NCBI GenBank assembly: GCA_041659405.1
Contig: JBAZYK010000011.1
Location: 31,674-63,673, forward strand
DNA from: Candidatus Altimarinota bacterium
GTDB lineage: Bacteria; Patescibacteriota; Gracilibacteria; UBA1369
Length of the DNA: 32,000 nt
Direction: 5' to 3'
Part shown: positions 20,141-32,000 of the stretch, piece by piece
How the letters are laid out: each line of letters starts with the position of its first letter
How positions within the stretch are numbered: the first letter of the stretch is position 1
Position numbers and translations under genes: made by a program
The notes under the pieces: generated by a model
Database searches by the model: none
Seen by the model: the letters and a program-made list of their open reading frames with translations, nothing else
What the model was told of the DNA's origin: nothing

Positions 20141-20240
20141 AATTTGTTTTTAAGAAATACAAGAAATACTTTCAGCTAAAAGTATCGCCAAAATATCACC
20201 ATCAAATTAAAAAAATCTAAACCCAAAGTGAAATAAACTT

Positions 20241-20278
20241 AAAAACGCGGGACGCCAATGTTATTCAGCAATCCCGCG
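20241..20278 (-). terminator. Rho-independent terminator of the 20319..21815 gene
   Basis: CGCGGGA (20246-20252) pairs with TCCCGCG (20272-20278). On the minus strand the stem is followed by TTTTT (plus-strand AAAAA at 20241-20245). Confidence 0.7.
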
Positions 20279-23621: not shown

Positions 23622-23976
23622 GCATGAAAAAATCCGAATAGTGCGAAAACTTTTCGTAGCGAATACCCTGCCCTTTTGGAAAATACTAAAAAACTTTTCA
23701 GGGAAAAGGTTTTTAGATTTAAAAAAACTCCATCATGCCGTTGAACCTCAAGGATACTAAACCCCCAGTACCCAGTATGGGTGCCCGCAAACCAACCGCA
23801 CACGGTTGGATATATTGAGCCCCCTTAAACAATGCGAAGAGAGAGTATATGGGGTCCTGACGTGCAAAATAGAGTAACCAAAATGTAACAAAAATCAGCC
23901 AAAATATCAAGGACTTCCCGGCTTAAAAAATAGTCAACTAGCCATTGTATCTGGTCAGTCGACAACGCCCCTATTG

Positions 23977-25022: not shown

Positions 25023-25112
25023 GGAGAGATCGCATAGTGGCCGAGTGCGCATGCTTGGAAAGCATGTAACGTCGCAAGGCGTTCGAGGGTTCGAATCCCT
25101 CTCTCTCCGCCA
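25023..25112 (+). tRNA. tRNA-Ser (anticodon GGA), CCA encoded
   Basis: Acceptor GGAGAGA/TCTCTCC, anticodon stem CATGC/GCATG with loop TTGGAAA, long variable arm, T arm GAGGG TTCGAAT CCCTC. Confidence 0.9.
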
Positions 25113-25291: not shown

Positions 25292-25837
25292 ATGAAAAAA
25301 ATTTTATTACCACTGCTACTCATTGTTTTCATTCAAACGGGTTGTGGTAACGGCGGAATTAAAGAAGAAGCCCACACCCAACGACCGGGTGAGTTTAAAA
25401 ATGGGCAACTGTATGCCACTTTTAAGATAGATAATTTCCAGATGAACTATCCCAATTGGCCGAATTTTGATACAAGCAAAGCGGCCGACGCGGACAAATA
25501 CAAGCTTGCAGTAGCCAATGAAGGCTGCAGTTTTATTATTAAAGTCTCACCGGTTCCCTCAAACATTTCCTTTAAAGATTATGCCGAGAATGCGCTTCAA
25601 GAAGGGACAAAACTATATCCAACAAAGATTTTGATCAAAGACGTTAAGGACACTTTTGCCCATTTTGAAGGCGAAATATCAATGAGCAACGTTATCATGA
25701 AAAGTGTTACCTACGCCTATTTCACCGGCAAAAAAGAATCTGTCAGTGTCGGTTTGGTTGCCCGAAAAGACCAATTTGACCAAGGCTGCACGCCAATAAT
25801 GGATGAAGCGATCAGCAGCGTTAAAGTGGACTTCTAA
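25292..25837 (+). CDS. Putative lipoprotein, unknown function
   Basis: MKKILLPLLLIVFIQTGC lipobox. The 3' end overlaps the recombinase 3' end by 17 nt (convergent genes). Confidence 0.6.
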   Translation: MKKILLPLLLIVFIQTGCGNGGIKEEAHTQRPGEFKNGQLYATFKIDNFQMNYPNWPNFDTSKAADADKYKLAVANEGCSFIIKVSPVPSNISFKDYAENALQEGTKLYPTKILIKDVKDTFAHFEGEISMSNVIMKSVTYAYFTGKKESVSVGLVARKDQFDQGCTPIMDEAISSVKVDF

Positions 25838-26693
25838 TTCTGGCCAAAGCCACACTTGTAAGTCTGGTATAAATTTGAGTTGTGCGGATACTGCTGTGCC
25901 CCAAAAGCTCCTGCAAATAACGAATATCCACACCATTTTCCAGCAAATGAGTCGCAAAACTGTGCCGCAACGCATGAAATCCGGCAATTTTATTGATCCC
26001 CGCTTTTTGCATAGCCTGCAAAAAAACTTTCTGAGCCGTTCGCGAATGCAACTTCCCTCCCCTCTGGCTTTCAAAAACAAAATCGCCCAAACTCTTACCA
26101 AAAATAAACGCCTTCAATTCATCTTTTATTTTACCCGGCATCACCGAAAGACGATCCTTGCCACCTTTTCCTTTTCGCACACAAACAAGCACACGCTCAA
26201 AATCCAAATCAGCCACCTTCAAATTAACAACCTCACTCACCCGCAAACCAGATCCATAAGCCAAAGAAAGCATTAACCGATGTTTCTGATTTTTAAGAGC
26301 TGCCAGTAGTGCCAAAATCTCTTCCTTCAAGAAAACAACAGGCAAACGCCGAGATCTTTTCGCAAACTTTAAAGGAATTTGTGTTTGATTCTTCAGCACC
26401 TCCCGATAAAAAAATTTAATCGAATTCAAATAAAGATTCACCGTTTGCGGAGCAAAGCCCTTATCGTGCTTCCACAAAAGAAAAGTCCGAATTTTCTCGA
26501 CATCCAAAATTTCAATATTAGAGCCCGCTTCGCAAGCAGTAGCAATAGTCATATCCTGCGGCCCCAAAGCTCTGGAATCATTTTTCAAAAATGCCAAAAA
26601 CACACTCAAACATGACCGATAAGCCTTAGCCGTCCGCTGACTATGCCCACGAAGCTTCACTTCCTCCACCAAACGATCCAAATAATATTTCAT
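25821..26693 (-). CDS. Tyrosine site-specific recombinase, IntI/Xer-like, 290 aa
   Basis: Catalytic set: GLRVSE (R), HALRHSFATHLL (HxxR), LLGHSS (H), TTQIYTRL (Y). By eye it is close to IntI1 blocks RRLPVV, HRL..LLYG.G.R.SE...L.V.DLDF and GKG.KDR, and to the terminal (V/I)RSPL. It has no equivalent of the long IntI-specific insertion between GKG.KDR and HxLRH. Confidence 0.9.
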   Translation of the reverse strand: MKYYLDRLVEEVKLRGHSQRTAKAYRSCLSVFLAFLKNDSRALGPQDMTIATACEAGSNIEILDVEKIRTFLLWKHDKGFAPQTVNLYLNSIKFFYREVLKNQTQIPLKFAKRSRRLPVVFLKEEILALLAALKNQKHRLMLSLAYGSGLRVSEVVNLKVADLDFERVLVCVRKGKGGKDRLSVMPGKIKDELKAFIFGKSLGDFVFESQRGGKLHSRTAQKVFLQAMQKAGINKIAGFHALRHSFATHLLENGVDIRYLQELLGHSSIRTTQIYTRLTSVALARIRSPL

Positions 26694-26781
26694 AACTTTT
26701 TTATTATAAAACTAAAGACCCCCAAAGAAGACTCAATGGAGGTCGGTAGCAAGATGCTACGGAAGAAGAATTGCCAATAAC

Positions 26782-26811
26782 ATTGTAGTATTTTTCATTG
26801 TTCATGGTCAA
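26782..26811 (-). promoter_or_regulatory. Sigma70-like promoter for the recombinase gene, TTGACC-N18-TACAAT
   Basis: Minus strand: -35 at 26811-26806 and -10 at 26787-26782, about 90 nt upstream of the ATG at 26693. Confidence 0.45.
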
Positions 26812-26835
26812 TTTAAAATTTTTAGTGCTAGCCCG

Positions 26836-26904
26836 TGGTGGAGATAAGGGGAATTGAACCCCTGGAAGATGAATGGCAATTCCTCCTCCGCGCCTGCTAT
26901 CCCC
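26836..26904 (-). other. tRNA-like element (acceptor stem, T arm, CCA) without a canonical D or anticodon arm
   Basis: Minus strand reads GGGGATAGCAGGCGCGGAGGAGGAATTGCCATTCATCTTCCAGGGGTTCAATTCCCCTTATCTCCACCA. The acceptor GGGGATA/TATCTCC includes G3:U70 and A73. T arm is AGGGG TTCAATT CCCCT. Only 34 nt lie between them, forming one GGAGGA/TCTTCC hairpin. Confidence 0.45.
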
Positions 26905-27045
26905 GCCCAAGGCCAGCTGAGAACAAAATACACAAAAAACATTAAAAAATTCTAAACCCAAAATGAAAAAAACTTAAAAAACATCACTTCCCAAAACCCA
27001 CCATTCTCTGCTACTATCGCGCCATAAAGCACCGCAAGACACTAG

Positions 27046-27323
27046 TTGTGCAACAAGTTGCTCACGCGTTTATTAATCAATCTTCCTAAAACTCAAAAAA
27101 ACCTGGAAAAGTAAGAAGCTCCCGGTCTGTTCGCAACTCATCGCACAACAGCACACATGCGGTTCGCTGGCTTTCGGCTAATCCAAGGCACAAACTGCTC
27201 TTCAAAAAGGTTTAAGAAACCTATAAATCTCAAGAAAACTCTCACGCTCTCCCAACTTATTTGCAGCAGTCGCCCTTCGGGCATATTATACCGCTGCCAA
27301 TAAGTTCGCATGGCGTGCGAACG
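27046..27323 (+). mobile_element. Non-coding cassette R, copy 1 (97-nt body plus about 180-nt attC)
   Basis: A 278-bp unit that by eye shows no differences from copies at 30133-30410 and 30821-31098. It starts at the TT of GTTGTGC and ends at the G of GCGAACG|TT. Its attC R'' box GCACAAC (27143-27149) is the reverse complement of its own start GTTGTGC. The left flank is unique sequence (attI side). Confidence 0.85.
27261..27289 (+). promoter_or_regulatory. Sigma70-like promoter inside the R attC, TTGCAG-N17-TATTAT, reading into the downstream cassette
   Basis: Exact 17-nt spacer. Also present at 30348-30376, 31036-31064 and 31847-31875. The R4 homology ends exactly at the last base of the -10 hexamer. 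Confidence 0.5.
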
Positions 27324-27371
27324 TTAGCTGCCATACTCCCTGCGTGAAATTTTAATCTTAATAAAAAAACT

Positions 27372-27677
27372 ATGAAATTATCCACAATTTACAACGCAGC
27401 TCTGGAAAAAGCCGACGCAGATGCGGCAGAAGTCATGATGCGCATGAGTCCAAAGTTAGGTTTAAGTAATCTTGACGACCTTCAAGGTAAAAAAAATCGA
27501 CAAGAAGCCTTAGAAAGAGTTAATTTTGTTTATAATTTATCTGGTCCCATTGGAAAAATTGGATTTAGAGTCATAGAAGAAATAAGGGCAATAGATTGGG
27601 GTGATCGAATGGAAGAATTTCATGGAATAAACCAACAGGAATGGTATAAAGAACTTGGCAATTTCCAAAAAAATTAA
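27372..27677 (+). CDS. Cassette A ORF, hypothetical protein, 101 aa
   Basis: Single ATG ORF filling cassette 27324-27808. Confidence 0.6.
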   Translation: MKLSTIYNAALEKADADAAEVMMRMSPKLGLSNLDDLQGKKNRQEALERVNFVYNLSGPIGKIGFRVIEEIRAIDWGDRMEEFHGINQQEWYKELGNFQKN

Positions 27678-27697
27678 AATTTCCCTCCGGTCGTACA

Positions 27698-27814
27698 GCA
27701 GCTAACAGCGCCCAACCGGTTCGCCCTGCGGGGCTCTCCCAAATTTTGTGGCGGTGAGTCGCTCCGCTCCCAATTATACCGCCACAAAACTTCGGTTAGG
27801 CGCGGACGTTATAT
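27698..27814 (+). other. attC-like recombination site of cassette A
   Basis: R'' GCAGCTAAC (27698-27706) is the exact reverse complement of the cassette start GTTAGCTGC (27323-27331). L'' GCGCCCAACCG pairs with L' CGGTTAGGCGC (1 mismatch). The right end is GCGCGGACG|TT with the G at 27808. Confidence 0.85.
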
Positions 27815-27954
27815 GAAATATGCTTTTCTTTTTACGGCTAACGCCTTACACTTTTCTATAATGAACAAATTTTATTTTTAATTTTTTAGAGGGGGTATAT
27901 GGTATTTTTTCCGCTACGCTCCGAAAATGATTTATTAAATATAATTAAAAACAT

Positions 27955-28920
27955 ATGAAAAACGAAGTAGAAATTTTTGATGAAGAAAATACAATCGTCA
28001 TTGACGATGAATATACAACTAATACTTTTGAATTTTTTCCTGACGAGAAAAAATTCAAGATCGATGTGAGTATCAAAGATGATTTTCATCATAATTATTC
28101 AACAATTGAATATAAAATTTCAGATGATCCTATTAATTTAAAAATGCGTACGATAGAGCTTTTTCATGAATTTATAGGCGGGAAAAGTGATTCAATAAAA
28201 GACGGGGTTGTCTTGGAATCGGAACTCAGAAAAGATAAATTTAATAACCAAGAAAGAATAGACGATTTGAAAAAAGAAGTAGAGTGGTCAAATGTTGTCA
28301 TATTCGGCAACCCCGAAGTCAATCTTTATATTCTATCTAAACACCCAGAGATAATCTCAAAAGATGATTATAGGAAATTTTTGCGTCAGTCTATAGAGAG
28401 AATTAGAGATGGCGTTGCTAAAGTAAAAGAAATAGTAAAAACTGATTTTCATGGATTGGAAATCCATACGGGCGACCATGGAATGAGTATTTGGTATCCA
28501 GACAATGAATCGGAAAAGAAAGAAAGTGAGGCATATTGGGATTTACCGAAAGATAAGCGTGATAATTCTGCCTATGGTAAGAAGCTAAAATATGTCGAGG
28601 ATTTTAATAAATCGCTTTTTGATGAAAAATCTTCAAGTTATGTTGGCATTTCTGAAATTGAGTTTAGAAGTAGTGATGAAATAGTTGAATATGTCCAAAA
28701 ACTACTTGATAAAAAAGACGAGCCCGCTAAAAAAGAAGTTAAACCTAAAATTTCAAAAACAAAAGGATTTATTATTTCTCTGTTTATAACACTTATTCTT
28801 TCATGGGTTGTAAGCTGGTTTGTGGATATACACCCATTTTTGATTTTTATAATCGTGCAAGTTATCGCATTTGCACAAAGCATAATTGGTGGTTGGCTAG
28901 AAAAAATATTAGAAAAATAA
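27955..28920 (+). CDS. Cassette B gene 1: acidic soluble domain with two C-terminal TM helices, unknown function
   Basis: 321 aa, very AT-rich codons. The C-terminus GFIISLFITLILSWVVSWFV and PFLIFIIVQVIAFAQSIIGGWL gives two hydrophobic helices. Confidence 0.65.
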   Translation: MKNEVEIFDEENTIVIDDEYTTNTFEFFPDEKKFKIDVSIKDDFHHNYSTIEYKISDDPINLKMRTIELFHEFIGGKSDSIKDGVVLESELRKDKFNNQERIDDLKKEVEWSNVVIFGNPEVNLYILSKHPEIISKDDYRKFLRQSIERIRDGVAKVKEIVKTDFHGLEIHTGDHGMSIWYPDNESEKKESEAYWDLPKDKRDNSAYGKKLKYVEDFNKSLFDEKSSSYVGISEIEFRSSDEIVEYVQKLLDKKDEPAKKEVKPKISKTKGFIISLFITLILSWVVSWFVDIHPFLIFIIVQVIAFAQSIIGGWLEKILEK

Positions 28921-28933
28921 AATAGGTAATCGC

Positions 28934-29920
28934 ATGAATCAAAACGATTTGAAAATCATAGAAATTGGTCATCAAATCAGGGATCTCTTTAATAATTCCA
29001 CAATAAAAAAGACACAGGTTTATTCAAGAAAACAAAGTGGCGATTGGAATCAATTTTGTGCAGCATTAGATACACTTGAAGATACCTGCTTAGCGATAGA
29101 GAATTTTCAAAAAGATTCGAATAATTTATTTATAAAAAATCCATATTTAGCAACTTACGGACTTTTGCAGGCTCTTTTTATCCAACAAGACGCTGTAAAT
29201 TTTTTAAAAATATCCTTATTTGGTATAAGCAATAAAATTGATTGGAAGGACAAAAAATATTCAGAACTTTTTAAAATTAGGCAAGTCAGAAACGAAACCA
29301 TAGGACACCCCGTAAAAAAGGAGAACAAAGGCAATAAATCAAAGTATGAAAATGACGAAATCACCTCTTGCACCATTGATCGCTCATCTTTGAGCAAAGA
29401 CGGTTTTAGATACATGTTATGGATGCACTCAAAAACAGAAAGCAAAACGATAAAATTTACGGACATCATCAGTCAACAAGATAAATATCTCGGAAATGAA
29501 TTAGAAATTGTTATGAAAGAAATTCAAAAAGAAGAGAATCAACATAAAACAAAATTTAAAAATGAAAAATTGGCCGATTTGTTAAATAAACCTTCTCTGT
29601 ACCAGATAAATCATATTTATGGCGTTCAATGGAATGACCATTTAGCATGGCCTAGTTTTAATCATTATCACGAATTATACAAAAAAATAAGAAAGAGTTT
29701 AGAAGATCGCTATGGTAAATTTGGCGAAACTTTGAGGATTCCTGGAACGGAAGAAGTAATCAAAAAATTAGATTATGTATTTGGCAAAATTGAAACATTT
29801 CAAAAAACTGGTAATTTTGAAAATTACGAACTTGAGGTTTATATTGACGCTCTTGACGCTGGAATTAACGAGTTAAAAACTCATTTAGTAGAAGTTGATC
29901 AAGAATTTGAAATACAATAA
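28934..29920 (+). CDS. Cassette B gene 2: protein with a HEPN-like Rx5H motif (candidate RNase/Abi-type effector)
   Basis: 328 aa. FKIRQVRNETIGHP contains R-N-E-T-I-G-H, which fits the HEPN Rx4-6H signature, after a helical segment (YGLLQALFIQQDAVNFL). It starts 13 nt after gene 1. Confidence 0.6.
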   Translation: MNQNDLKIIEIGHQIRDLFNNSTIKKTQVYSRKQSGDWNQFCAALDTLEDTCLAIENFQKDSNNLFIKNPYLATYGLLQALFIQQDAVNFLKISLFGISNKIDWKDKKYSELFKIRQVRNETIGHPVKKENKGNKSKYENDEITSCTIDRSSLSKDGFRYMLWMHSKTESKTIKFTDIISQQDKYLGNELEIVMKEIQKEENQHKTKFKNEKLADLLNKPSLYQINHIYGVQWNDHLAWPSFNHYHELYKKIRKSLEDRYGKFGETLRIPGTEEVIKKLDYVFGKIETFQKTGNFENYELEVYIDALDAGINELKTHLVEVDQEFEIQ

Positions 29921-30038
29921 GGAGTCTTGGCTTCGGGGCATTCACCCCCCAGCCCCTCTGCCCCTACGCCAAGACAAAAATAAAATTTGTTAATTACAAA
30001 AAAGTGCCGACTATCGTCGGAAAAAAGAAAAGCATACA

Positions 30039-30138
30039 TCATATAGCAGCGTATATCTGGTTCGCGCTTGGCTAACGCCAAATGCTCACCCATATTGCTC
30101 CCTACGGTCGCAACATCAGATATGCGCGAACGTTGTGC
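30039..30138 (+). other. attC-like recombination site of cassette B
   Basis: R'' TCATATAGC (30039-30047) matches the reverse complement of the cassette start GTTATATGA (27808-27816) at 8 of 9 positions. L'' GCGTATATCTG pairs with L' CAGATATGCGC. The right end is GCGCGAACG|TT with the G at 30132. Confidence 0.75.
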
Positions 30139-30410
30139 AACAAGTTGCTCACGCGTTTATTAATCAATCTTCCTAAAACTCAAAAAAACCTGGAAAAGTA
30201 AGAAGCTCCCGGTCTGTTCGCAACTCATCGCACAACAGCACACATGCGGTTCGCTGGCTTTCGGCTAATCCAAGGCACAAACTGCTCTTCAAAAAGGTTT
30301 AAGAAACCTATAAATCTCAAGAAAACTCTCACGCTCTCCCAACTTATTTGCAGCAGTCGCCCTTCGGGCATATTATACCGCTGCCAATAAGTTCGCATGG
30401 CGTGCGAACG
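30133..30410 (+). mobile_element. Non-coding cassette R, copy 2
   Basis: 278 bp, matches R1 by eye. attC R'' is at 30230-30236 and the promoter at 30348-30376. Confidence 0.85.
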
Positions 30411-30465
30411 TTGTTGGAAATTATAAAAAATGCTACAATCACCCTTTAATCATTAAAAATAAGAT

Positions 30466-30705
30466 ATGAGAGATTATCCATCCGGAATGCCAGAAGTCAG
30501 CACAATAGAAGAAGCAATTGATGAGTTAGTTGGTCAATCTATTGGAACAAAAGTCCATTTAAATCAAAGTCTAGACAAGCCAGAAGACATTGAAAGTAAA
30601 CTTAAAGAAAAAGGCATAAAAGTTAGGGTTGATAAAGAATCAGATCCACATGATGGACGTAGAGGTGGAAGTTCAATAACATATATGCTAACTATTATTG
30701 AATAG
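30466..30705 (+). CDS. Cassette D ORF, hypothetical protein, 79 aa
   Basis: Single ATG ORF in cassette 30411-30820. Confidence 0.55.
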   Translation: MRDYPSGMPEVSTIEEAIDELVGQSIGTKVHLNQSLDKPEDIESKLKEKGIKVRVDKESDPHDGRRGGSSITYMLTIIE

Positions 30706-30730
30706 GGGCTAGAACGCATTTTTTATCACA

Positions 30731-30826
30731 TCCAACAACAGCGCCCATGTGGTTCGGCTGCGGCCTCTCCCAAATTTACTTTCCGCTTCGCTCCAAGTAA
30801 ACTTCACATAGGCGCGAACGTTGTGC
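30731..30826 (+). other. attC-like recombination site of cassette D
   Basis: R'' TCCAACAAC (30731-30739) is the exact reverse complement of the cassette start GTTGTTGGA (30410-30418). L'' GCGCCCATGTG pairs with L' CACATAGGCGC. The G is at 30820. Confidence 0.85.
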
Positions 30827-31098
30827 AACAAGTTGCTCACGCGTTTATTAATCAATCTTCCTAAAACTCAAAAAAACCTGGAAAAGTAAGAAGCTCCCGG
30901 TCTGTTCGCAACTCATCGCACAACAGCACACATGCGGTTCGCTGGCTTTCGGCTAATCCAAGGCACAAACTGCTCTTCAAAAAGGTTTAAGAAACCTATA
31001 AATCTCAAGAAAACTCTCACGCTCTCCCAACTTATTTGCAGCAGTCGCCCTTCGGGCATATTATACCGCTGCCAATAAGTTCGCATGGCGTGCGAACG
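30821..31098 (+). mobile_element. Non-coding cassette R, copy 3
   Basis: 278 bp, matches R1 by eye. attC R'' is at 30918-30924 and the promoter at 31036-31064. Confidence 0.85.
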
Positions 31099-31126
31099 TT
31101 AGCCGCCATACTTAACTTAATCGATA

Positions 31127-31513
31127 ATGAAAAAACTATTACCAATTATCATAGTCGCTATTTTTTTACTTAGTGGATGTGTAGAAATGAAACCACCAGG
31201 AAATTGGTCCAAAGGGTCAGACAATAGGCTTATACTACAAGATTGGGCATTCTTTTATTTCCCAGAAGGTATAAATAAAGGAAGTGTAGTTGGACCAATT
31301 TTTCCTTATAACAACTCTTTGGAAGTATGCAAAAAAACAGCTCAAGAAAAATATCCTGAAAAAGATTATTTTTGTGGAACAGAATGCATATTTGTATGGG
31401 ATGGAATGACAATCGAACACTGCAAAAAAGGAGTAGTTGGGATATATTCAAAAGGAGAATATAAATTTATAATTAATCCTAAAATACAGGGTTTACACAT
31501 TACTGTGGATTAA
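31127..31513 (+). CDS. Cassette F ORF, putative lipoprotein, 128 aa
   Basis: MKKLLPIIIVAIFLLSGC lipobox. Single ORF in cassette 31099-31632. Confidence 0.6.
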   Translation: MKKLLPIIIVAIFLLSGCVEMKPPGNWSKGSDNRLILQDWAFFYFPEGINKGSVVGPIFPYNNSLEVCKKTAQEKYPEKDYFCGTECIFVWDGMTIEHCKKGVVGIYSKGEYKFIINPKIQGLHITVD

Positions 31514-31519
31514 ACGCAC

Positions 31520-31638
31520 GGCGGCTAACAGCGCCTAACCGGTTCGCCTGCGGGCTCTCCCAAATTTTTTGTGGCGGTGGTCGCTCCGCTCCAAATTATA
31601 CCGCCACAAAAAACTTCGGTTAGGCGCGAACGTTGTGC
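31520..31638 (+). other. attC-like recombination site of cassette F
   Basis: R'' GGCGGCTAAC (31520-31529) is the exact reverse complement of the cassette start GTTAGCCGCC (31098-31107). L'' GCGCCTAACCG pairs perfectly with L' CGGTTAGGCGC. The G is at 31632. Confidence 0.9.
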
Positions 31639-31875
31639 AACAAGTTACTCACGCACTTATTAACCGATCTTTCTAAAGCTCAAAAAGCCTGGAAAAGTAT
31701 TCATCTCCCGGTCTGTTCGCAACTCATCGCACAACAGCACACATGCGGTTCGCTTGCTTTCGGCCAATCTAAGGCACAATCTGCTCATCAAAAAGGTTTA
31801 AGAAACCCATAAATCTCAAGAAAACTCTCACGCTCTCCCAACTTATTTGCAGCAGTCGCCCTTCGGGCATATTAT
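31633..31875 (+). mobile_element. Non-coding cassette R, copy 4, diverged and truncated within its attC
   Basis: Numerous substitutions in the first third and in the middle, and one 1-nt deletion, relative to R1-3. The CCCGGTCTGTTCGCAACTCATCGCACAACAGCACACATGCGGTTCGC core and the 3' part are conserved. Homology stops after TATTAT (31875); the right attC arm is missing. Confidence 0.8.
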
Positions 31876-31952
31876 GGATCAGTAGATAATTAGTTTGAAA
31901 AAGTTACGCAATCAAGTTTTAATGATAGCAATTATCATTTAACGAAATTGCT

Positions 31953-32000
31953 ATGTTGGAACATGACTTGTTATGGGATCTTTTGCCTGATGGGTTGAAA
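31953..32000 (+). CDS. Partial ORF (16 codons: MLEHDLLWDLLPDGLK), runs off the window end
   Basis: ATG at 31953 follows the unique sequence that replaces the R4 right arm. It is too short to assign. Confidence 0.3.
   Translation, partial: MLEHDLLWDLLPDGLK

Follow-up and report, generated by a model that had tools for sequence, protein, structure and literature searches.

Analysis of a 32,000-nt stretch of DNA from Candidatus Altimarinota bacterium (hereafter the window; assembly GCA_041659405.1, contig JBAZYK010000011.1, positions 31,674-63,673 of the forward strand) indicated that it most likely carries a chromosomal gene-cassette platform, integron-like in its working and made from an Xer/dif-type module. 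The array falls outside the integron family in the sense in which IntI defines that family. It occupies window positions 27046-31875 on the plus strand and consists of eight units in the pattern R-A-B-R-D-R-F-R' (R1, A, B, R2, D, R3, F, and R4), with the recombinase gene oriented divergently on the minus strand. The attI-type junction reads ...GCAAGACACTAG|TTGTGC, with its G at 27045. All array units terminate in ...ACG|TT, the 3' end being GCGCG(A/G)ACG|TT in units A, B, D, and F and GCGTGCGAACG|TT in unit R, and the unit boundaries (last base G) lie at 27323, 27808, 30132, 30410, 30820, 31098, and 31632. The crossover point is exact only to within the common ACGTT. An earlier sequence-only reading had described a minus-strand recombinase, an attI-like junction, and plus-strand units at these positions, all of which are present, and its view that a reduced-genome lineage carries an integron-like cassette system with a minimal Xer/IntI-type recombinase is supported by every test run. 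Its description of the layout as a classical integron needs refining, as the defining IntI domain is absent and the sites are unlike canonical attC; that tools based on the IntI domain would miss the system remains an expectation only, with no tool result behind it.

The array is composed of four cassettes interspersed with copies of unit R. R1 (27046-27323), R2 (30133-30410), and R3 (30821-31098), all on the plus strand, are 278-bp units with 100% identity, in which no convincing ORF was found. R1 consists of a 97-nt body followed by a long hairpin site, which begins with R'' GCACAAC at 27143-27149 and runs to G27323 on the plus strand. A promoter-like TTTGCA-18-TATTAT (27260-27289, plus strand) is directed at the next unit, and the ORF-less unit R is probably an outward promoter source for the following cassette, although support for this role is weak. 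Cassette A (27324-27808, plus) contains an ORF of 101 aa without a family match (27372-27677) and a hairpin site at 27698-27808. Cassette B (27809-30132, plus) has a conserved 5' leader (27809-27954), two plus-strand ORFs with no family above threshold for either (27955-28920, 321 aa; 28934-29920, 328 aa), and a hairpin site at 30039-30132; its ends pair with each other over about 70 nt (27809-27879 with 29976-30046). Cassette D (30411-30820, plus) contains an ORF of 79 aa (30466-30705) and a hairpin site at 30731-30820, while cassette F (31099-31632, plus) contains an ORF of 128 aa with a lipoprotein-like N-terminus (31127-31513) and a hairpin site at 31520-31632, which matches a site of the related locus L003 with 94.6% identity across 111 nt. 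R4 (31633-31875, plus) is an R copy with 92% identity that lacks L' and R', breaking off within its own hairpin site directly past the TATTAT box (31875), and this truncation likely marks the end of the array.

Comparison of the two ends of each unit revealed that the cassette start is complementary to its own R'' in A (9/9), D (9/9), F (10/10), R (7/7), and B (8/9). The first 26 nt of each unit pair with bases 5' of its own 3' hairpin site and not with those of the neighbour's. At unit positions 4-26, the self matches were 13, 16, 21, 18, and 12 of 23, compared with 3-9 for non-self combinations (4-8 for in-array neighbours), with about 5.8 expected by chance. The cassette ends thus bear a circular-permutation signature. 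When the circularised window sites were folded, the z values ranged from -3.8 to -8.8 relative to shuffles, and the bottom strand was more stable than the top in all five; the same preference was observed in 25/25 sites from 17 other loci (median -5.0 kcal/mol). Across 29 sites, 86.2% of the cells were paired, compared with 59.6% after shuffling and 26-39% with slid partners. Two-sided changes were found in 262 cells, against 85 in shuffles, and 25 of the 33 stem pairs vary on both sides. Because the sites had been chosen by a pattern requiring L pairing and a start-to-R'' match, this covariation signal is partly circular, and only columns outside the selection provide independent evidence; the covarying columns include stem columns 1-6 and 22-23, which were unused in site selection. 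Position 10 of the R stem is unpaired in 28/29 sites and position 11 in 23/29.

Several claims of the earlier reading could be assessed from these results. The complementarity between each unit start and its own R'' held exactly, with the pairing extending well past the span first described, as did the variable but complementary L''/L' boxes, the AGC after R'', the GCGAAC after L', and, over the 29 sites, the attC hallmark of structure kept while sequence varies. The proposed folding of both strands yielded a fold that was better in the bottom strand in 30/30 sites, and the suggested refutation, complementarity no better than at shuffled boundaries, failed to apply (12-21/23 for self against 3-9 for non-self).

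The recombinase (25821-26693, minus strand, 290 aa) is an Xer/IntI-like tyrosine recombinase with a PF00589 domain and an N-terminal SAM-like domain. It contains the motifs GKGGKDR, HALRH, and a C-terminal RSPL, and residues R151, K176, H240, R243, H266, and Y275 are invariant with IntI1, the full catalytic set being kept. Comparison with IntI1 and VchIntIA and inspection of an AlphaFold model revealed that the IntI-specific (I2) segment of about 45 residues is absent. Residues 196-214 occupy the place of VchIntIA residues 180-241, the three insertions of IntI1 in the I2 region are all missing, and residues 197-216 of the model contain no helix. Both the missing IntI signature insertion and the IntI1-like blocks, including RSPL, had been predicted correctly, and the test of the recombinase against the defining IntI domain, which had been proposed as a check, found that domain absent. 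The N-terminal domain carries a lineage-specific disordered insert of about 20 aa (residues ~41-57). The best NCBIfam match is XerA (210.6 bits, slightly below the cut-off of 220), and XerA and IntI are tied as structural neighbours. The protein falls within a Patescibacteria/CPR family of single tyrosine recombinases of ~270 aa that is very large and whose members of about this length carry the source names XerD or XerA-like; no IntI segment was found among the 120 best homologues listed or in 21 sequences inspected.

The attI-type core of the window (27028-27056, plus strand) comprises a left arm with the central region (...AGCACCGCAAG-ACACTAG) and, across the G27045|T27046 junction, a right arm (TTGTGCAACAA) that comes from the first unit. 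It is a diverged form of a CPR-wide dif-like site, ACTTCGCATAA-AAACGAG|TTATGTGAAAT, and its ...ACACTAG|TT ending is common to the window and loci L047, L071, and L081. The family attI consensus has a dif-type 11-7-11 organisation (arm-centre-arm), and 18/22 of its arm bases are identical to E. coli dif (8/11 and 10/11 per arm; PMC3025954 was the source of the dif sequences of E. coli and B. subtilis used for comparison). The left arm of the window attI departs from the dif-like consensus, and the junction position weight matrix (PWM) gives the relative L003 a score of only 0.8. A dif site had been named in advance as a possible refutation; the family attI is indeed dif-like, and the array is not dissolved by that. 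The picture therefore shifts to a cassette platform on an Xer/dif module.

Analysis of related loci showed that recombinase, junction, and arrays are linked across CPR. The junction PWM was positive in 55/73 related loci at a conserved position ~115 nt upstream of the recombinase gene, and 52 loci exceeded the top score of 878 control windows. The attC-like pattern occurred 63 times upstream on the opposite strand, compared with 3 times in all other compartments combined, which hold about 5.5 times more sequence; the enrichment of attC-like hairpins on the junction side and strand is about 100-fold. Contigs break 5' of the recombinase gene, with <2.5 kb left in 53/80 loci compared with 13/80 on the 3' side. 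In each of two closely related pairs, L022/L031 (95% identical through gene and attI) and L018/L024 (88%), similarity is lost exactly at ...GAG|TT, which answers the proposed search for junction polymorphism in relatives. In addition, L046 and L060 share a cassette of 2086 nt with 90% identity that begins at G|TT and lies at different array positions, while L003 has a recombinase with 65% identity, a conserved attI region, and two different cassettes. An alternative path, attI-R-D-R, was observed in L002 and is possibly an assembly artefact of the R repeat. Circular-junction or alternative-junction contigs were searched for and none were found, so the proposed check for circular-junction evidence among contigs was negative.

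Based on these results, we propose a mechanism in which the dif-like core ~115 nt upstream of the gene, pointed away from it, would serve as attI. Every cassette closes with a long imperfect hairpin site. On folding, its bottom strand displays two duplex arms copying both core-site arms, the R box TTATRTGAAAT matching the XerD-type arm and the L box CTTCNNATA... the left arm. The centre between these arms is asymmetric, 4 unpaired bases facing 1, and the R arm carries the conserved mismatch pair 10-11 bp out. At the right-arm border (top G|TT, bottom AA|C), the recombinase may then exchange a single strand of the folded site with attI, and replication would resolve the product, so that cassettes would enter at attI and exit as circles, the latter through recombination between two hairpin sites. 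That the neighbouring recombinase is the catalyst is inferred without recombination data. A single-stranded substrate with exchange of only one strand, a block of the second exchange by the asymmetric centre (the role of I2 in IntI), and cassette mobility itself are likewise inferred and not shown. Under the accepted model, safe handling of folded attC by a tyrosine recombinase depends on the I2 helix (PMC7790495). Recombination of folded sites by an I2-less enzyme is unproven, and direct recombination evidence is lacking; both points count against the platform reading.

Of the alternatives, the one that survives best, though we consider it unlikely, is a housekeeping single Xer acting with a chromosomal dif in dimer resolution. 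In this case, the gene would lie beside its own site as in XerS/difSL and XerH/difH, no dedicated cassette function would exist, and the cassettes would be small IMEX-like parasites piling up at dif in the manner of CTX-type phages, through a folded single-strand dif mimic. The mechanisms overlap with those of the platform, and the two readings differ on whether the site is a real dif. This alternative is supported by the dif layout and arm identities of the attI consensus, the size of the CPR-wide family and its XerD or XerA-like names, the XerA match and structural tie, and the described hijacking of Xer by ss-IMEX (PMC7790495). Against it, the GC skew sign does not change across the site in eight loci flanked by about 10 kb on each side (L004, L033, L040, L051, L055, L070, L072, and L080), though a terminus dif should show a switch, and the skew downstream has no consistent sign (34/58 positive); this test is weak owing to short windows and foreign DNA. 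Moreover, the window genes on either side are directed away from the site, contrary to the arrangement at a terminus, the centre measures 7 bp and not 6, and the units are cassettes of 0-2 ORFs without replication, transfer, or phage genes.

It is very unlikely that the locus is a canonical integron array (CALIN) with an I2-bearing IntI elsewhere or in trans and an unrelated Xer as neighbour. In its favour, the sites follow the attC plan R''-L''...L'-R' with G|TT and a bottom-strand preference, and integrase-less arrays are common among known integrons (PMC9668308). However, the junction lies about 115 nt from the recombinase gene in 55/73 loci from many CPR lineages, hairpins are enriched solely on its junction side and strand, the folded-site arms match those of the gene-proximal site, and the IntI segment was found in none of the homologues listed or inspected. 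An ordinary gene cluster whose intergenic repeats are immobile (terminator or REP-like palindromes) and whose recombinase is incidental would agree with the placement of sites between ORFs, where a terminator role is possible, and with the single genome path seen for the source organism, but is all but excluded by the pairing of each unit's 5' end across the ORF with its own 3' site and not the adjacent hairpin, the parting of near-identical relatives exactly at G|TT, the 2-kb G|TT-bounded unit in two different arrays, and the strict bias in both strand and side with respect to the recombinase gene. The strand that folds better runs antisense to the ORFs, so the structure cannot be read as an mRNA terminator.

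No prior description of a CPR Xer/dif cassette platform was found in the searchable literature. The platform favoured here fits the pre-I2 ancestor proposed for integrons, and cassette stacking without a domain thought essential for integrons, recurring in CPR, bears directly on integron origin. The system resembles sedentary chromosomal integrons (Vibrio superintegron) in its divergent tyrosine recombinase gene, gene-proximal G|TT insertion site, and unidirectional array, whose cassettes are mostly promoterless and of unknown function and include ORF-less and duplicated ones. The sites are likewise imperfect palindromes (R''/L''/L'/R') with starts belonging to their own 3' site, a bottom-strand preference, and within-array resemblance. 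In contrast, the CPR recombinase lacks the I2 helix domain that attC recombination is held to require, the R stem spans 20-70 bp compared with 7 in integron attC, a 4x1 loop at the centre takes the place of a mostly unpaired spacer of 5-6 nt, the R-arm mismatch pair is the conserved irregularity instead of extrahelical L-box bases, and the attI is a symmetric dif-type site; no integrons reported from CPR were found in the literature searched.

Among Xer-based systems, IMEX (as in CTX-phi, where a folded single-strand attP mimics dif and one strand exchange is followed by replicative resolution) also combine an Xer-type enzyme without I2, a dif-type target, a hairpin partner imitating both dif arms around an irregular centre, and tandem stacking at the site. 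They are phages, plasmids, or islands, whereas the CPR units are 0.3-2.3 kb with 0-2 ORFs; the CPR exchange is inferred at the XerD-type arm border and not on the XerC side, and the CPR system has a single recombinase and a site adjoining its gene, apparently not at the terminus. Acinetobacter pdif modules are also discrete gene modules with Xer-type site borders, but their sites are double-stranded, of alternating inverted orientation, and on plasmids, whereas the CPR sites are all direct, hairpin-forming, chromosomal, and one per unit. Single-Xer systems (archaeal XerA/dif, XerS/difSL, and XerH/difH) similarly use one ~270-300-aa enzyme on both arms of a near-palindromic site, and the window recombinase matches XerA best in both sequence and fold. 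Gene and site are adjacent in xerS/difSL, as in the CPR system. These systems perform dimer resolution at the terminus and have no cassette arrays, whereas in the CPR system a 7-bp centre is followed by an array.

The plus-strand array in the window starts at G27045|T27046, an attI-type junction that serves as the insertion site near the recombinase gene, and the tyrosine recombinase is encoded by a 290-aa ORF on the minus strand (25821–26693). The array has the order R-A-B-R-D-R-F-R', in which the ORF-less repeat units R1 (27046–27323), R2 (30133–30410), R3 (30821–31098), and R4 (31633–31875) are combined with the gene cassettes A (27324–27808), B (27809–30132), D (30411–30820), and F (31099–31632), all on the plus strand. 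Cassettes A, D, and F each carry one ORF and cassette B carries two, and none of the five cassette proteins matched a Pfam or PADLOC family above threshold. All eight units terminate in ...ACG|TT, and the site in every unit follows the layout R''(..AAC)-AGC-L''-GGTTCG...variable hairpin...-L'-GCGAAC-G|TT. R1–R3 are 278 bp long, 100% identical to one another, and without a credible ORF, while R4 shares 92% identity with them and is cut off inside its own 3' site. A promoter-like TTTGCA-18-TATTAT, pointing at the next unit, is located near the 3' end of each R copy, and the truncated R4 stops exactly after the TATTAT box; because the promoter and terminator scan of the whole region was not above chance (19 found, 15.8 expected), we regard the R promoter as a lead only.

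Several side observations concern the two ends of such arrays. Identical ORF-less R copies alternate with gene cassettes in the window (R-A-B-R-D-R-F-R'). Among the related loci with a homologous recombinase gene, ORF-less first units starting with TTGTGC(A/G)AAAT adjoin attI in L011, L022, L025, L034, L046, L060, and L081, and ORF-less 'TTGTGC...GCACAAC' first units beside attI are also found in other lineages. The final array site is truncated, without L' and R', both in the window (31875) and in the related locus L003 (about 2210 in locus coordinates), and in both cases ordinary genes directly follow it.

Analysis of the unit ends indicated that the first 26 nt of the window units are complementary to the bases preceding their own 3' site. 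Over positions 4–26, each start pairs with its own site at 12–21 of 23 positions, compared with 3–9 for the sites of other units and 4–8 for the preceding site in the array, and in cassette B the own-end pairing extends over about 70 nt. In 17 other loci, the starts of 25 cassettes likewise pair over 26 nt with the R'' of the same cassette. This pairing is a signature of circular permutation, as would arise from units that are excised and inserted as circles opened at G|TT. When joined as circles, the window sites reach folding z-scores of -3.8 to -8.8 relative to shuffles, and the bottom strand gives the more stable fold in all 5 window sites and all 25 further sites (30/30). Across 29 sites, 86% of the cells in the R and L stems are paired, compared with 60% in shuffles and 26–39% with slid partners, and 25 of 33 pairs are altered on both sides. 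This covariation signal is partly built in by the site selection; the stem columns 1–6 and 22–23, which were not used in the selection, also covary.

The geometry of the folded sites differs from that of canonical attC in having a long R stem and a 4x1 centre, in which four unpaired bases face a single one on the opposite strand. Nearly all sites carry mismatches at R-stem positions 10–11, and one of these mismatches turns into a T.G wobble on the bottom strand only. No consistent extrahelical bases in the L box, the IntI-type polarity feature, were observed in the sites examined. At gathering and E-value thresholds, Rfam contains no family matching the hairpin sites, and its only nearby match was a tmRNA-like piece. 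These results bear on a sequence-only reading that had proposed an integron-type array run by a minimal Xer/IntI-type enzyme. Its sequence details of the array and sites all held upon re-examination of the window, as did the complementarity of each unit start to its own R'' when set against the sites of other units (12–21 of 23 against 3–9). Folding of both strands, which it had suggested, revealed an attC-like fold with the better bottom strand in 30/30 sites, and the attC hallmark of conserved structure with variable sequence held on the 29 sites, with non-canonical geometry. The suggested scoring of extrahelical bases yielded no consistent ones in the L box, and the R-stem mismatches at 10–11 and the asymmetric centre were found instead.

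To characterize the insertion site, we derived the family junction consensus, ACTTCGCATAA-AAACGAG|TTATGTGAAAT, in which two 11-bp arms, inverted repeats at 9/11 positions, surround a 7-bp centre. Dif has the sequence GGTGCGCATAA-TGTATA-TTATGTTAAAT in E. coli and ACTTCCTAGAA-TATATA-TTATGTAAACT in B. subtilis (PMC3025954). Comparison with these sequences revealed that the consensus arms share 8/11 and 10/11 bases with E. coli dif (18/22) and 8/11 and 9/11 bases with B. subtilis dif, with the G|TT junction at the border of the XerD-type arm; the left attI arm of the window itself has diverged from the family consensus. The R box of the folded sites, in which GTTATNTGAAAT pairs with ACATCANATAAC, copies the right attI arm, and the L box, in which CTTCNNATANNC pairs with its counterpart, copies the left arm; both boxes point toward the irregular centre. 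Since the R and L boxes thus reproduce the attI arms around an irregular centre, the folded site would be a dif mimic, its single-strand nature being inferred. As a separate observation, the left-arm motif recurs as TTCG(T/C)ATAATATACAA about 45 nt upstream of the attI left arm in L011, L017, L034, L040, L045, L051, L060, and L062; this extra copy may be an accessory binding site comparable to DR1/DR2 of attI1, a TATAAT cassette promoter, or a dif remnant.

The recombinase matches both PF13495 (SAM-like N domain) and PF00589 (catalytic domain) in Pfam. Its residues Arg151, Lys176, His240, Arg243, His266, and Tyr275 are invariant with IntI1, completing the RKHRHY set, and the C-terminal ..SPL tail is common to the recombinase and IntI. 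Neither integron-integrase model reached its cut-off (TIGR02249, 197 against 265; NF011946, 137 against 435), their matches being split into two pieces, and the best NCBIfam match was archaeal XerA, with 210.6 bits just under the curated cut-off of 220. Among solved structures, XerA, matched in one piece at 142 bits, is tied with VchIntIA, matched in two pieces at 139 bits. The same two are tied as best structural neighbours of the AlphaFold model in the fold search, and the scores from HMM, phmmer, and Foldseek each leave XerA level with IntI. In VchIntIA (180–241), about 43 residues lack a counterpart in the recombinase, and three IntI1 insertions in this region, including ALPDALERKYPRAG, are absent from the recombinase and from all 21 family members inspected. 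The AlphaFold model (pLDDT 84) predicts no helix at residues 197–216. The IntI-specific additional domain, the I2 helix around patch III, is absent from the recombinase; the HMMs, the VchIntIA and IntI1 alignments, and the AlphaFold model all uphold the earlier claim that the IntI signature insertion is missing. The extra ~20 residues of the recombinase lie within a variable, disordered loop of the N-terminal domain. The loop after the second helix of this domain (residues ~38–60; 26514–26582, minus strand) is disordered in the model, with pLDDT below 50, and the same loop is a hot spot for insertions of 10–70 residues across the family, as in the homologous proteins P0013, P0026, P0033, P0035, P0042, and P0057. 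The homologues number in the thousands, are mostly ~270 aa long and 50–56% identical, and come from Patescibacteria/CPR.

To evaluate the recurrence of this organization, we examined 80 loci from species genomes. Of the 73 loci with sufficient sequence, 55 contain the junction motif, its median distance from the start codon being 115 nt, and 52 junction scores exceed the maximum of 878 control windows. The hairpin pattern occurs 63 times upstream of the gene on the opposite strand, compared with 3 times in all other compartments, which comprise about 5.5x more sequence; sixteen loci contain at least two hairpin sites, with seven in the largest. Contig ends lie within 2.5 kb on the 5' side of the gene in 53/80 loci, compared with 13/80 on the 3' side, a breakage that repeats or population variation upstream would cause. 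On a side note, the array contigs of L012, L013, L016, L026, L046, L055, and others are recorded as 'uncultured Gammaproteobacteria' or 'Pseudomonadales', labels that are probably wrong for contigs carrying the CPR-type recombinase and array.

Comparison of related loci revealed signs of mobility at G|TT. L022 and L031 are 95% identical over the recombinase gene and the 125-nt intergenic region, with no similarity right after ...AACGAG|TT, and similarity between L018 and L024 (88% identical) is likewise lost at G|TT, so that the junction polymorphism among relatives anticipated by the sequence-only reading was observed in both pairs. A 2086-nt unit that begins exactly at G|TT is 90% identical between L046 and L060 and occupies different array positions in them. 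In L003, the recombinase is 65% identical to that of the window and the attI region is conserved, and the array consists of two unrelated cassettes with the same site type. The circular junctions that had also been proposed were not found for the window organism, nor were alternative junctions: metagenome scans returned no match to a circular or reshuffled junction of cassettes A/F, nor to the left side of this organism's attI. Look-ups of the cassette proteins yielded nothing but short contigs that break at R and show unchanged neighbours. The L002 contig (attI-R-D-R) was considered as a presence/absence variant but set aside, since such a join can result from the 278-bp R repeat.

The main rival explanation is that the site is a real chromosomal dif and the recombinase a housekeeping Xer. 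In its favor, the attI consensus has the dif layout and shares 18/22 arm bases with E. coli dif. Against it, the GC skew has the same sign on both sides of the site in the loci with both flanks, and the window genes on either side diverge from the site instead of converging as at a replication terminus. The skew test is weak, because the windows span only 10–25 kb. We consider this rival unlikely and, as far as such short windows tell, the attI-type site is probably not a real chromosomal dif. A tRNA-integrating island, suggested by the tRNA-like sequence between gene and array, was rejected, as ARAGORN found no tRNA and L003 lacks the piece.

Other elements were observed around the array. A tmRNA-like stretch is located between the recombinase start and the attI junction (26709–26904, minus strand), on which RF00023 scores 33 bits (E 1e-10; tRNA-like domain only, below the gathering score), RF04321 (permuted-tmRNA) scores 21.7 bits, and ARAGORN made no call. 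Its homologue lies right upstream of the L004 recombinase on a Peregrinibacteria chromosome and is absent in L003; the stretch may represent a two-piece ssrA gene. Two RNA genes lie just outside the array locus: one for 6S RNA (23723–23878, minus strand), which passes the gathering score with 50 bits, and one for tRNA-Ser(GGA) (25023–25112, plus strand). The leader of cassette B (27888–27940) is a conserved element of ~60 nt composed of AGAGGGG(N3-8)GGTG, a hairpin, and then ATTTATTT, and B-type leaders occur in L006, L013, L014, L026, L027, L031, L050, L052, L058, L070, L078, L079, and L082, ~80–200 nt past G|TT and preceding unrelated genes. The leader stem covaries (GTTTTC/GAAAAC, GTCGCC/GGCGAC, GTCTTTTTTGC/GCAAAAAAGAC), and Rfam contains no match for it. 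A possible short ORF in the leader, MVFFPLRSENDLLNIIKNI with a stop, overlaps the ATG at 27955; because indels break the peptide between loci, the leader is more likely to be a nucleic-acid element than a peptide. In addition, a 57-nt motif, ATTAAAAAATTCTAAACCCAAAATGAAAAAAACTTAAAA, occurs in two copies with 86% similarity at 20189–20245 and 26924–26980, both upstream of minus-strand genes, and again in L003; its minus strand reads TTAAGT-17-TAGAAT, probably a shared promoter.

We propose a mechanism that follows the integron and CTX paradigms, in which catalysis and the single-strand substrate are inferred by analogy and not shown. The recombinase would bind the two arms of the folded bottom-strand site together with the two arms of double-stranded attI and carry out the exchange on the bottom strand, at AA|C (G|TT on the top strand), and replication would resolve the exchange product. 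Recombination between two sites would free circles, and the 4x1 centre is a candidate for avoiding the second exchange without I2. The system probably works like a sedentary chromosomal integron, with its mobility deduced from comparative signatures only. A bolder reading, which remains no more than a possibility, is that it represents a living example of a hypothesised stage in the origin of integrons, at which a dif-tied Xer-type enzyme without I2 already captures as well as stacks single-strand hairpin cassettes. If so, hairpin-cassette recombination predates and needs no I2, integrons are descendants or sisters of this system, and the asymmetric centre and arm mismatches perform the job of I2 in strand choice and in blocking the second exchange.

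A natural and widespread system appears to unite attC-like cassettes with a Xer-type enzyme that lacks I2 and a site of the dif type. It would add a cassette-based gene-exchange platform to CPR/Patescibacteria, a large share of bacterial diversity, and account for the frequent CPR assembly breaks just upstream of the recombinase gene; integron finders requiring the IntI domain would then under-count such systems. In the full-text literature searched, neither integrons nor attC arrays nor such a Xer-linked cassette system are described for CPR, and the text of the IntegronFinder 2.0 survey does not mention CPR. The origin of integrons becomes experimentally testable, since it can be asked whether hairpins are substrates of the CPR enzyme and by what means a second strand exchange is prevented.

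Comparison with integrons revealed that attI beside the gene with insertion at G|TT, the R''-L''...L'-R' sites, and the cassette starts owned by their own sites are all found here, so that these features of the 'classical integron' layout claimed earlier are met. The IntI additional domain, however, is stated to be defining for integrons (PMC9668308), and the system fails this definition because the domain is absent. Where integron attC sites carry extrahelical bases in the L box, the sites here have R-stem mismatches at 10–11 and an asymmetric centre. The Xer-type enzyme and the two 11-bp inverted arms are shared with Xer/dif, but in the short windows examined the site does not appear to lie at a terminus. 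With IMEX, the elements exploiting Xer, the CPR system shares the enzyme type, the target type, and, by inference, the hairpin-mimic logic; CTX-phi, for example, presents a dif mimic with an irregular centre and is integrated by Xer through a single strand exchange (PMC7790495). IMEX, however, are phages, plasmids, or islands with replication or transfer genes, whereas the CPR units contain 0–2 small ORFs without family matches above threshold. In integron research, the I2 helix of IntI is regarded as the innovation by which a Xer-like enzyme passed from recombining double strands to recombining single strands (attC), and integrons may descend from a Xer that single-strand IMEX elements had hijacked (PMC7790495). 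The CPR system is close to this hypothetical ancestor and, with catalysis so far inferred, would show that the capture of hairpin cassettes needs no I2.
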